Shown in pieces: positions 46,975 to 51,925 of a stretch of DNA of 64,000 bases. The notes beneath the pieces are model-generated. The model was given only the letters and a program-made list of their open reading frames with translations, had not been told where the DNA came from and did no database searches. Origin of the DNA: Escherichia coli (GTDB lineage Bacteria > Pseudomonadota > Gammaproteobacteria > Enterobacterales > Enterobacteriaceae); the NCBI RefSeq assembly GCF_048403405.1, contig NZ_CP183129.1, one strand, 5' to 3'. The position numbers were made by a program, and so were the translations under genes. Position 1 is the first letter of the stretch. Each line of letters starts with the position of its first letter.

Positions 46975-47738
46975 GGTGATGCCTCCAATTAGTTGAATTA
47001 AGGATATAATACTCGCTTTTAAGGTTGTTTCATGGTCACAGTTAACCTTCATTGTCCCCGTTGCCAGTCCGTTCAGGTTTACCGTCACGGGCAGAACCCC
47101 AAAAGACATGATCGATTCCGCGGCCGTGACTGTCACCGGGTATTTCAACTCAGTTACTGTTACGAGCCCCGTAAACCGGGAGTTAAAGACCAAATCGCTG
47201 AAATGGCTTTCAACGGTGCCGGGGTTCGCTATACTGCCCGTACGCTGAAAATCGGCATTAATACAGTCATCCGAACTTTAAAAAACTCTCGCCACGAAGA
47301 ATAACGTCATCCCCGGTCGCTCATGCTGATGTGGCACTCATCTGCGAACGTAGTCAGCAATGGAGCTTTGTCGGCAGTAAAGCGCGACAGCACTGGCTCT
47401 GGTACGTGTACAACACGAAAACTGGTGGTGTTCTGGCCTACACTTTTGGCCCCCGGACTGATGAAACCTGTCGTGAACTGCTGGCGCTGCTTACCCTTTT
47501 ACCATCGGCATGTTGACCACTGACGAATGGGGTAGTTACGCTAGAGAGTTACCAAAGGAGAAGCATCTGACTGGTAAGATTTTTACTCAGCACATTGAGC
47601 GTAACAATCTGACCCTGAGAACCCGAATCAAACGTCTGGCCCGCAGAACCATCTGTTTCTCGCGTTCTGTAGAACTTCATGAAAAAGTCATCGGTGCTTT
47701 TATCGAAAATATATGTTCTACTAATTGGAGTCATCACC
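46975..47738 (+). mobile_element. divergent IS1-family insertion sequence (about 764 bp)
   Basis: Terminal inverted repeats GGTGATGCCTCCAATTAG (46975) and CTAATTGGAGTCATCACC (ending 47738) resemble IS1 ends; the insA-like ORF (47032..47304) has the CPRC…C..C zinc ribbon; insB-like frames 47331..47516 and 47510..47824 are in different frames and one reads through the right IR. Confidence 0.75.
47032..47304 (+). CDS. insA: IS1-family InsA-like protein
   Basis: 90-aa ORF MVTVNLHCPRCQSVQVYRHGQNPKRHDRFRGRDCHRVFQ…NGAGVRYTARTLKIGINTVIRTLKN, clearly related to but divergent from K-12 InsA. Confidence 0.75.
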   Translation: MVTVNLHCPRCQSVQVYRHGQNPKRHDRFRGRDCHRVFQLSYCYEPRKPGVKDQIAEMAFNGAGVRYTARTLKIGINTVIRTLKNSRHEE

Positions 47739-47793: not shown

Positions 47794-48117
47794 TTACCTC
47801 ATTCTGCTCTTTTTTCTCAAATGACATATATTATATTTTACATCATATTCATAGGTATATGACATTCCCCCGCCCCCCATTATGTCATTGTGGGTTGATG
47901 TTGGGCTTTCATAAAAAAATACATCTTTTTTTGAACTAGCATTAATTATATTTACTTTATATATTAAAATATTTTCTCCATCTGGAAATATTTTAGCCAC
48001 ACAATATAAAGCAGCTAAATCCGAATTACTTAAAAATATATTGTCATCACTCATAACTCCAGCCATTAAATGACTGGAGACTAAAGCAAGGAAATAACAA
48101 CATTGTATTGCCTTCAT
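47794..48117 (-). CDS. putative immunity protein for the orphan Rhs C-terminal toxin
   Basis: Small AT-rich ORF starting one nucleotide after the orphan toxin stop (TAA-A-ATG, with GGGAG upstream); predicted start MKAIQCCYFLALVSSHLMAG is signal-peptide-like. Assigned by position only. Confidence 0.5.
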   Translation of the reverse strand: MKAIQCCYFLALVSSHLMAGVMSDDNIFLSNSDLAALYCVAKIFPDGENILIYKVNIINASSKKDVFFYESPTSTHNDIMGGGGMSYTYEYDVKYNICHLRKKSRMR

Positions 48118-48118
48118 T

Positions 48119-49378
48119 TTAATTACTCCCTTGCCTGATAATTGCAACTCCATTCCCTTTAGCTTTGGGATTATATTTTAGATAGGTGTTATTTGGTGTT
48201 CCCAAGTAACTACTGTATTCTTTTTTTCCCATTCCATTCATATAAGAATTCGTTAAATCTTTGCTTGAAAAATTTAGACTATCATAAACATCATTTTCTT
48301 TTGTTACTTTATTTCCTTTATCGTCAGAGTAAAAACCGTGAGTGTGATAATCACCTACTCTCTCTGAACCTTCAGGGCATTTTATATTTCGCAAGTCTAC
48401 ACTATCATTATCATTTGAACTTATCGGATTCATAGGGAAATATTCACCTTGCTTCTTACATATTAGTCCACCATATTCTTTATTCTTGTTAATTGATTCT
48501 CCATTACACATTGCCAATGCAAATATTCCAATATCATCTATATTTTTTGATTTAAATTCATATAATCCTAATGGATCCATGCCATTCACCGGGCTCAGCG
48601 GATATGTATACAGGTTCCATCCCCCCTTCAGCCCAATCGGATCCTGAGTGATATACCGCCCCTGCAGCGGGTCATAATAGCGGTGGCGGTTGTAATACAG
48701 GCCGGACTCCTCATCATACTGCTGACCCGGCAGGCGGATGAGCTGCTGCAGCTGATGCGGGTTCTCTTCATTCAGCTGGTTACCCCATTCATCGTATTCT
48801 GCGCACCATTCTGTTGCCCCTTCCGTGCTGACAAGCGCCAGCGGCAGGCCGCGATGGTCGCAGTGGTACAGGTGGATTTTTCGCGCCGGCGTGTACACCG
48901 GGTCCATCTGGTTTTGTATCTGCTCCACCGTCAGGCCGCACGATGCCAGCCAGCGGCGGCTTTCCTCGCTCACCCGGTCAGCCAGGATTTCACTTTCCAG
49001 CCGGTCGAGCATCTGCACCAGCACCGGCGGGAACACCACACTGCCACCGTCTTCACCGCCGGACTGCTGAAGCGCATCCGCCAGGCTGCGGCGCTGCGTT
49101 TTCGCCAGCTCACCGGTGGCAGTTTCAACTCTGATGAGTGGCGTGAAGCTCCCCGGCTGATAAACCGTCTGGATGCGGGTTCTGTCGTTCTGTATTGTGG
49201 TCAGCCGGTCGCCGTCCCAGCCGTACCAGGTCACTTCCGGTTTCCATGACAGCGACATCCAGCCCGTCAGGTCCCGTTCACGCCGCCATACCCGTTTTGC
49301 CACCCTGCGGCCCAGCAGGTCGTAAAGATAGCGACTTTCGACCAGCGGCTCTGCATATTGTGTCCGCGTGTAGTGCAC
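48119..49378 (-). CDS. orphan Rhs C-terminal module (core-end fragment plus alternative toxin tip)
   Basis: 419-aa ORF that begins inside rhs core sequence (…[30 protein letters not shown]…), passes the DPLGL demarcation and ends in an AT-rich unique tip (…[16 protein letters not shown]…). The track start is a GTG; core homology continues upstream to about 49620 with no ribosome-binding context. Confidence 0.85.
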
Positions 49379-49612
49379 CAGCCGGTGCCGGCTGTCGTAA
49401 TGGTACCGGTGAGTCCGCTCATCATCCGTGCGGATAACCCCTTCCGGGATGAGGTCGGTTTTCTCCGTCAGCCTGCCGTGACGGTCATACCGGTAAAGAT
49501 AGTGCGCGTCACGGGCGATACGGTTATCCGGCCATGCGCTGAGGGGGCTGTCCGGGTGCAGCTCCGGGTCGGGCAGGCGGTTGCCTGCCGGGTCCGTGGC
49601 ATACGGGATATC
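48612..49612. repeat. roughly 1 kb rhs core-end direct repeat (orphan copy)
   Basis: Near-identical to 52940..53940 (offset 4328 bp; only scattered mismatches by eye). Confidence 0.9.
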
Positions 49613-49654
49613 AATGCCCAGGTTACATATAATAATAAGAGCAATTAACTTAAT

Positions 49655-49981
49655 TTATTTGTTTATAATGCGCTTACTTAATACAAACCATTGAATATAC
49701 CCTCCTGACAGAAAATAAAGCCATATTATTATCGCCATAATATACTTACTATCAATCCTTACGCCAATAATGTCTGAAACAGTCCCTATAAATATTAGAG
49801 CAATAAAGAATACTATGCCTGTTGGAAAACAGATTACCATCATTCCATAAGACATGAGACTAATTAACTCGCTCACATCACGAGTGGAGTCTAATAGTGA
49901 AAGTCTATGCATGGAAAAGAATAGTATTAAAAGCGATAAAGCCAGCCATATAGCTCTGAATAAAAAAATAATATATTTCAT
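49655..49981 (-). CDS. small hypothetical membrane protein with three predicted TM helices
   Basis: 108-aa AT-rich ORF MKYIIFLFRAIWLALSLLILFF… inside the rhs island; function unknown. Confidence 0.45.
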   Translation of the reverse strand: MKYIIFLFRAIWLALSLLILFFSMHRLSLLDSTRDVSELISLMSYGMMVICFPTGIVFFIALIFIGTVSDIIGVRIDSKYIMAIIIWLYFLSGGYIQWFVLSKRIINK

Positions 49982-50085
49982 TACATCACTCCGGTGAATA
50001 CAAATCTAATAAAGCGTCCAATGTTATTTCCGGAGCACTTCATCTTACATGTTTCTAAAGAATCATTAGACCAGTCAGGGCAAGA

Positions 50086-51221
50086 TTACGAAAGCCCGCT
50101 CCCCGCAAGGACTGACGCGAGATAGTTTCTGTCCATGGCTGCTTTTCGCATCTTACGTCTTAACCCTGCCTTGAATACCTTATCATTCGTCAAAATATTA
50201 ATAGCAATGTGCCGTATCCCTGAAAATAATTCTGCTGCGTTTCCTCTTCTTATTTTGCAGTCGTCTTCATTCATTACCACGTCCAGACGCCAGTGCAGCT
50301 TATTCTCCACGTGCCAGTGGTTTCGGATTGCTGTGGCGAACTTCTCAGCGGTTAAATCAGCAGAGCTGATATAATATCTGACCGTCATTTCTGGCTCTTT
50401 CTTTTGTTCTGCTATTATTGACCGAAAGGAGACTGCCACGTATAATTTTTCAGTCCTTTCCATTCAAATGTAAAATCAATAAGTTCATCAGGGACATCGC
50501 AAACAATATGAAGACGGATTTCTTCTCTGCCGTGACTCTTTTCACTAATTGCGTAACTGTCATGCTCTGGATTAATTAATTCTTTCAGCGGAAATGTTTC
50601 CTCAAAGGCTTTATTCAGCCGCCCCTGGTTTCCTTTTACAGCGAATAAGTAATCACCACCCTGTTTTTGTATCTTCTCTGCAATATCTTTCTGGCAACCC
50701 ATCGCATCAGTTGTGATGATTTTCTCTTTAATATACAAAATGTTAAGAAGTTCAGGGATAGCTGTGATCTCATTAGATTTCTCATCCGTCCTGATCTGCC
50801 CCAGGACCAGAATGTGCATTGTTGAGAACGCACTAATGACATGAATCGCTCCCCTGCGGCGACTCTTGTCATAAGAATGCCGGAGTGTTTTTCCATCAAT
50901 TGCGATGACGTCTTTATCATCTGAAGTATGGCAATCTCGCATCCAGTTAATAAAGCACTCGTGAAATTTTGCAGGACTGATACAGGATACAACTCTGGCG
51001 ATGGTATCGTGAACAGGAATACCATTTTCAAAATCACCGTATTGTTTTAAAAAATCGAGATGTGTTTCCCCAAAATCCTCTATATCTTCCCAACCTTCTG
51101 CACCCGAAATAACGGCACAAATAGTCAACAGTAGAATATCCGATAATTTATGTTCCACTTTCCAGGCTTGTCTGTAATCGGGGATAATAGAAATATGCTC
51201 CATCAATTTTTTAAGTTCCAT
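50086..51221 (-). pseudogene. H-repeat-associated (ISAs1-family) transposase, split by a frameshift
   Basis: ORFs 50415..51221 (268 aa, [51 protein letters not shown]…) and 50086..50463 (125 aa, …[32 protein letters not shown]…) overlap in different frames and together resemble the roughly 378-aa K-12 H-rpt proteins. Confidence 0.7.
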
Positions 51222-51755
51222 TTTGTTCTCCTTAATTATGTAAGGAGTATTTGATCATGTATAAGCAATAAAAAACAGCTTTAGGTAATGAGGAATATCT
51301 CAATTTTCAAACATAAAATGCGAATTATTTAGTACAAAAAAGCAGCGTTACGTGATCTTTCCCTGGCATGTCATTAGATGAACCAGTTATACAACCCTCG
51401 GAACAGAATCGAGGTCCTAAAGACGGACCAAAAGCGTTTAAACAACTATGTATTGAAAATCCATTACGATTATAAGTTCCTGTATTAACTGACGGTACTA
51501 ATCGTATGCCGTCAGGTTTTCTATTGCTTGCTCCCGGGTCATTAACATTCCAACTCCATAGGCCTTGAGGTATTGGCCCTCTATTTATAAATGTGTACAA
51601 CGGGGATTATTTTTACATTGCATATTATTACCAGAAGCGACTGGAATACTAAGCACATCATAAAAATTATCATCACCTGGTATATCTGAAACACACGAAA
51701 GCATACCTAAAGTTATGCTGTATAAACAGGTGGCTAATCCCAAGGGGATCGATTC

Positions 51756-51925
51756 CAGAAATCGGGTTCAACGGATACTGATAAAAATTCCACCTACCTT
51801 CCAGCCCAATCGGAGCCTGAGTGTTATACCGCCCCTGCTGCGGTTAATGTTACCGATAATAGTTATAGTACAGCCCTGATTCATCATCATACTACTGCTG
51901 CGGCAGTCTGATGAATTATTGCTTT
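51756..51925. repeat. degenerate third copy of the rhs core-end segment
   Basis: CAACGGATACTGATAAAAATTCCACCTACCTTCCAGCCCAATCGGAGCCTGAGTGTTATACCGCCCCTG… aligns with the main core end at 52925-53090 with many substitutions and stops. Confidence 0.7.

Follow-up and report, generated by a model that had tools for sequence, protein, structure and literature searches.

The 64,000-nt stretch of Escherichia coli DNA analysed here (from contig NZ_CP183129.1; hereafter the window) carries an Rhs element on its minus strand between rpmE/priA and yiiX/metJ, the priA ORF lying at 57136..59406 on the plus strand. In this region the window is 100% identical to E. coli CFSAN061763, and the PGAP annotation of that strain was transferred by converting its coordinates into window positions (Table 1). 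Read in the direction of transcription, the full-length rhs gene is followed by a small SEL1-like gene, presumed to be the immunity partner of the active tip, then by the remnant that forms the subject of this report, a complete H-rpt element and a second, partial rhs gene.

Table 1. Features of the Rhs element and of the remnant within it (window positions)
Feature	Position	Strand	Source or remarks
Full-length rhs, 1409 aa	52404..56633	-	ORF list; PGAP 'RHS element core protein'
SEL1-like 155-aa gene, yibG homologue	51925..52392	-	ORF list, PGAP; weak Sel1/TPR Pfam hits
Remnant rhs core end, degenerate PxxxxDPxGL motif at its end	51735..51914	-	BLASTN, translations, alignment to intact alleles
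PGAP pseudogene, 'RHS repeat-associated core domain-containing protein; internal stop; incomplete'	51891..51673	-	PGAP
Decayed Tlde1/DUF2778-type toxin domain	51366..51734	-	Toxin part of K-12 yibS'/yibW'
91-aa ORF, TTG start	51325..51600	-	Codons 1-78 from toxin remnant; last 13 codons and stop from H-rpt terminus
H-rpt element, ISAs1 family, 1,291 bp, complete	50075..51365	-	94.35% to yhhI H-rpt (L008) over 1,292 columns
ISAs1-family transposase, frameshifted	51221..50086	-	PGAP
ybfB	49981..49655	-	PGAP
Second partial rhs (1,506 nt in PGAP; 419-aa ORF)	49624..48119	-	PGAP, ORF list
'RHS element protein dsORF-f3'	48117..47794	-	PGAP; in ORF list 48153..47794 (earlier start, 119 aa)
IS1H, frameshifted	~47032..47724		PGAP

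The 170-aa tip of the main rhs gene matched no Pfam family. This active C-terminal tip (within 52404..53373, minus strand) corresponds to the K-12 orphan pseudogene yibJ, with 97.5% identity continuing through yibG; a tip that is silent in K-12 is the working one in the present strain. The tip of the orphan rhs fragment (48119..49624) matches Pfam DUF4329 (E 3e-16), and the 119-aa ORF comes next. An Rfam L31-Gammaproteobacteria ribosomal protein leader, expected and known, lies just upstream of rpmE (57012..57064, minus strand; 60 bits, E 2e-11). The classical paper on the rpmE-side Rhs element is reportedly that of Zhao and Hill from 1995, and the element is presumably Hill's RhsF, to judge by the PGAP product name 'RHS element protein dsORF-f3'. 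The 'RhsF' of recent EHEC papers (PMC7618764, PMC7216683) follows another gene naming and was set aside as irrelevant.

A decayed core end and its intact counterpart

The remnant starts 11 nt past the stop codon of the SEL1-like gene, where a preliminary description, made from the letters of the window, had placed it: directly 3' of the main immunity gene. That description had taken 51756..51925 for a heavily mutated copy of the rhs core end and had named alignment to rhs core ends as the check. BLASTN of 51960..51300 (minus strand) against the whole window returned two hits. Positions 51914..51763 matched the core end of the main rhs gene (53071..52920) at 77.6% over 152 ungapped nt (E 7e-30), and 51914..51735 matched that of the second orphan (48741..48563) at 73.9% (E 4.5e-26). 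The segment is indeed a mutated core end, and the CCCAATCGG…ATACCGCCCCTG blocks by which it had been recognised fall inside the first of these matches (plus strand, ~51806..51838). Compared with the consensus of five other core ends, it shows 79.6% identity and 31 differences, 18 of them GC>AT and 7 AT>GC; its GC content is 47%, as against 53-58% in the five. The “many A/T substitutions” of the preliminary description were thus right in direction, but the bias is not overwhelming. At the end of the core piece, which measures ~180 nt, the demarcation motif (51735..51777), with the DPxGL cleavage motif in it, is broken by a 1-nt insertion, and a Tlde1-type non-core domain comes after it.

E. coli PE164 has an intact allele at the rhsA locus, in the yibF–yibH interval. 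There it forms the C-terminus of a full-length rhs gene, with Imm57 directly behind it and yibH next. Core end and toxin part of the remnant together are colinear with the 3' end of this gene (84.6% over 557 columns), and lesions were called relative to this allele type. Three in-frame stops lie in the core end (TAG at 51894..51892, TAA at 51852..51850 and TAA at 51846..51844). A 1-nt insertion (+1) in GATCCCC at the DPLGL motif (51750..51744) shifts the frame, a 9-nt in-frame deletion between 51634 and 51633 falls within a GGTAATAAT repeat, and CAA has become TAA at 51587..51585, beside a 1-nt deletion that restores the frame. The two frameshifts cancel, and the 91-aa ORF therefore shares its frame with the core end. 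Read as a potentially functional orphan the sequence fails, since its frame is interrupted by three in-frame stops, two frameshifts and the further TAA. We are highly confident that 51914..51366 (minus strand) is a pseudogene, the dead relic of a Rhs C-terminal tip.

Judged by its sequence, the remnant is the pair of K-12 pseudogenes yibS (b4650) and yibW (b4651). Positions 51960..51366 are 99.2% identical over 595 nt to the end of yibG and yibS'/yibW' of K-12, with the same three stops, two frameshifts and 9-nt deletion, and the longer block yibJ–yibG–yibS'–yibW' of MG1655 (L002, 6198-8198) matches 53373..51366 at 97.5%. The earlier view of an older, displaced and decayed Rhs toxin tip is borne out by the colinearity with the PE164 gene, by the lesions and by this identity with yibS/yibW. 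A literature search on yibS, yibW and yibV returned no relevant papers.

The relic is widespread. Its 595-nt part is present, at a coverage of at least 80%, in 3,461 of 5,426 complete E. coli genomes; the core-end piece is found at 95% identity or more in 3,483 records, and any match to it in at most 3,902 genomes. Six copies were compared (window, K-12, D9, Z1323HEC0494, STK77-E and M19). Every lesion is common to all six, and D9 has one extra stop in the core end. When a 28-mer of the toxin part was searched in a collection of species-representative genomes, the only exact matches were two Amycolatopsis orientalis contigs of 330 and 258 nt. Both are in all likelihood contaminating E. coli DNA, so the search is uninformative about the age of the remnant.

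Toxin family and immunity partner

The toxin part of the remnant is AT-rich, is 89.7% identical in nucleotide sequence to the intact toxin domain of PE164 and has kept both catalytic residues (His codon 51450..51448, Cys codon 51393..51391). The C-terminal domain of the intact allele scores 33.2 bits on Pfam Tlde1_dom (PF10908), above the gathering cutoff of 30.1, and Ralstonia homologues score 36-40 bits. Measured against the same cutoff, the 91-aa ORF alone is a weak match (E 0.003, 18.2 bits), and a reconstruction of the remnant, with the core end in frame 0, the +1 at DPLGL and a back-shift near …CTHL|NRGPIPQG (131-150 aa), reaches 24.5 bits. The reconstruction also matches intact E. coli protein P0002 over its full length (83% identity, 100% coverage), as it does Rhs-Tlde1 proteins of Ralstonia and Paraburkholderia (58-60%). 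His104 and Cys123 (HSC…SEGCITG) and the N-terminal VASGNN…CKNNPxC block are invariant in these alignments.

AlphaFold modelled the C-terminal domain of the intact allele with a pLDDT of 77 and a pTM of 0.75. The top 18 Foldseek matches of this model in the PDB are all of L,D-transpeptidase fold (YkuD-type), most with a probability of 0.98-1.00 and a TM of ~0.5, and include DpaA, YkuD, Ldt enzymes, Pgp2 and Bd1075. A sequence profile search of solved structures returned the Rhs core-end motif only and no match to the toxin domain. Tlde1 proteins carry the catalytic motif H-X(14-17)-(S/T)-H-G-C-h and act on peptidoglycan stems by L,D-carboxypeptidase and exchange reactions, by means of the catalytic His and Cys (PMC9638812). 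Here the sequence reads H…(15 residues)…S-E-G-C-I; the S-E-G-C of this subfamily, with Glu replacing the second His, is invariant in 10 sequences. Sequence and model together indicate that the remnant is what was once a Tlde1-type toxin with a predicted activity against peptidoglycan, a member of a family that has an L,D-transpeptidase-like fold and attacks that polymer.

Rhs toxins of this kind (Rhs-DUF2778, 'Tox-LD-peptidase', 'Tae7') paired with Imm57 have been described (Zhang et al. 2012, PMC3482391; Sibinelli-Sousa et al. 2020 preprint, bioRxiv 10.1101/2020.02.18.954545). The intact PE164 allele and P0002 share with them the Rhs core, the DPxGL motif, the Tlde1_dom and Imm57. The window copy differs from them in being a pseudogene, and the subfamily in having S-E-G-C where (S/T)-H-G-C is canonical. 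Salmonella Tlde1a (STM14_0336), which acts in the periplasm on the tetrapeptide stems of peptidoglycan, belongs to the same Pfam family and follows the same His/Cys logic. In contrast to the remnant, however, Tlde1a is a free-standing T6SS effector with no Rhs fusion, and it is paired with a DUF2195 immunity protein and carries a capping subdomain; its second active-site His is Glu in the Rhs-fused subfamily, and the similarity between the two sequences is detectable at the profile level only.

The Imm57 gene starts 16 nt after the DNA encoding the intact toxin P0002. In K-12, where it is yibV, and in other strains, it stands after the same remnant; in the window the H-rpt junction is found instead, and tblastn detected Imm57 nowhere in the window. 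The 5' region of yibV (K-12 L002, 8264..8346) has a peculiarity of its own: a T7 tract puts the ATG out of frame with the Imm57 domain. The out-of-frame ATG has a signal-peptide-like start, MARLLTIVFF…, and one extra T would yield MARLLTIVFFFSISASA|VTARQ…. This arrangement is present in nine of nine strains examined, including strains with the intact toxin (L002, L003, L007, L008 and L011-L015), and PGAP labels most of these Imm57 genes 'frameshifted'.

Core-end divergence and the 91-aa frame

The two parts of the remnant have diverged from the intact allele to different extents: 35 of 171 sites differ in the core end and 38 of 369 in the toxin part (Fisher p = 0.002). Simple neutral decay at one rate for both parts, starting from a PE164-like ancestor, accounts for these figures imperfectly. 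The greater divergence of the core end might reflect AT-biased decay acting on a GC-rich piece, or a divergence that came earlier and was followed by homogenisation of the active copies. One could envision, along the latter line, that the tip was imported together with a diverged core, that most of the ~20% divergence of the core end preceded its death, and that active copies such as that of PE164 were later gene-converted to E. coli cores. The twofold excess over the toxin part (~20% against ~10%) is one point in favour of this scenario. The distribution of the differences over codon positions (9/5/17; p = 0.027), the 9 synonymous changes among 22 changed codons and the lack of intermediate core ends among the 5,426 genomes also speak for it. 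On the other hand, the amino-acid pattern is specific to the E. coli clade-I core end, and residues invariant in the compared core ends are changed, for example D>A in DPIGL and YYDP>*H*P. Moreover, the 18:7 GC>AT bias, applied to GC-rich third positions, can by itself yield a third-position excess. We consider import of a diverged core a serious contender but an unlikely one. Were it correct, the words “heavily mutated copy” would overstate the decay, and the pseudogene status would be untouched.

The 91-aa ORF exists as first described, with a non-ATG start, and lies on the minus strand. Most of it corresponds to the toxin domain, of which it covers the C-terminal two-thirds, and its last 13 codons (PGKDHVTLLFCTK; 39 nt) are end sequence of the H-rpt/ISAs1 element. 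The preliminary description had left a choice between a toxin fragment and a remnant immunity gene. The former holds; the latter was rejected, because the ORF aligns with the toxin domain itself and the real partner is Imm57. No immunity family in Pfam or NCBIfam matches the ORF, and the NCBIfam scan gave no hit to it at all. It might still be argued that the ORF is a functional small gene, encoding either a truncated toxin made from an internal start or an immunity protein, remnant or orphan. It retains the catalytic His and Cys and is open across 91 codons in the window, and orphan rhs toxins of Salmonella can, according to PMC7043789, be expressed from internal starts. The ~90 codons past the second frameshift stay open in most strains as well, which is unsurprising given the few substitutions. 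Yet the N-terminal third of the domain is missing, and with it the invariant VASGNN…CKNNPxC block, and the C-terminus is IS-end sequence, in a junction form that is present in only 148 of the 5,426 complete E. coli genomes. Two of the six strains compared (STK77-E and M19) have W>* inside the ORF, and the changes are mostly nonsynonymous: in this small sample of six copies the variable sites within the ORF comprise 3 nonsynonymous and 1 nonsense against 1 synonymous. The start codon is TTG, and the promoter and terminator scans gave nothing at the remnant and no promoter-like excess; nor did Rfam, searched at a permissive threshold, place any family there. A functional gene, of either description, is very improbable. 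The ORF is an accidental open stretch in which two-thirds of a toxin are joined to the end of an IS. The evolution of the remnant looks neutral in these alignments, and we infer that it is silent and unexpressed.

It would be equally improbable, in our view, that the remnant is not inert, either with its diverged core end shielding the module from recombinational deletion or with the open two-thirds of the Tlde1 domain serving as a recombination reservoir or being occasionally expressed. The idea that the core-end similarity is a chance or low-complexity match, with no rhs remnant behind it, can be dismissed as refuted by the E value of 7e-30 within the window and by the colinear PE164 alignment, which runs on into a toxin domain fused to an intact Rhs elsewhere, and the pseudogene has been annotated independently, by PGAP and in K-12.

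A proposed history of displacement and truncation

The C-terminal displacement model of Rhs evolution, degenerate fragments included (PMC2935791), offers a framework for these findings. At some time the Tlde1 tip, with Imm57, would have formed the working end of an rhs gene, a position that it still occupies at the rhsA locus of PE164. A new pair of tip and immunity gene (yibJ-CT/yibG) would have recombined onto the core and pushed the Tlde1 tip downstream. The displaced tip, no longer translated within Rhs, would have gained its three nonsense codons, two frameshifts and 9-nt deletion. Later the complete block of tip, yibG and relic would have moved into the Rhs element between rpmE and yiiX, and the H-rpt/ISAs1 element would have come to end the relic at 51366|51365, with loss of the ~20 last toxin codons and of Imm57. 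We infer this order of events; the gene order itself is rhsA-CT/yibA, yibJ-CT/yibG and dead Tlde1 tip with yibV in K-12, and yibJ-CT (as the active end), yibG and dead tip in the window.

The preliminary description had read the remnant as a record of successive toxin replacement at the locus. A history of replacement stands, but its assignment to the present locus does not: the block yibJ-CT/yibG/yibS/yibW sits, with identical lesions, at rhsA in K-12 and other strains. Since the lesions are identical at both loci, the decay must predate the placement of the module in the rpmE–yiiX element. The K-12 locus differs from that of the window in its position (yibF–yibH as opposed to rpmE–yiiX) and in the standing of the yibJ tip, which is an orphan there and the active end here. 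It differs also at the 3' end. In K-12 the toxin sequence extends to its own stop codon (…SEPDSTLTVTD*), with yibV and the H-rpt fragment yibU behind it; the window copy breaks off at …SSNDM against a complete H-rpt and has no yibV.

The cut is sharp. The homology shared with K-12 and with the intact allele ends at 51366 (…GCITGSSNDM), and the junction 51366|51365 falls exactly on the left terminus of the H-rpt, CAGGGAAA…; neither the ~20 last codons of the toxin nor Imm57 follow. The H-rpt matches the Pfam families DDE_Tnp_1_assoc and DDE_Tnp_1. On its far side lie the last ~100 nt of an rhsC tip (49982..50082), then ybfB and a ybfO-type partial core (97% to K-12). Its chimeric flanks, overlapping by 7 nt at the right end, suggest an origin by recombination or by an IS-adjacent deletion rather than by simple insertion. 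The H-rpt joins a block of RhsA type (yibG/yibS/yibW') to one of RhsC type, making the element a mosaic.

A similar case is known from Serratia marcescens, where the SMA1612-1616 fragments (Jackson et al. 2009, PMC2935791) likewise consist of a partial core, the motif and a tip, lie 3' of a full-length rhs and its immunity gene, and bear frameshifts and premature stops. There, however, the core piece hardly differs from the gene upstream, whereas the core end of the present remnant is ~20% diverged and the module is common to different rhs loci. Pseudogene, toxin family and displacement mechanism have all been described already, and the feature is in that sense an ordinary one. What the window offers is a textbook stack of Rhs tips (active tip, immunity gene, older dead tip) in which the dead tip is identifiable as what used to be a Tlde1-type toxin against peptidoglycan, deprived in this strain of its Imm57 partner. 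It provides a clean worked example of C-terminal displacement, decay, IS-mediated truncation and the shuffling of Rhs modules among loci.

A further IS was met in E. coli S1-NGR-02-A (L015), in which an IS2 lies inside the same remnant and only the part equal to 51683..51366 is left beside Imm57; there the dead tip was struck by an IS independently.
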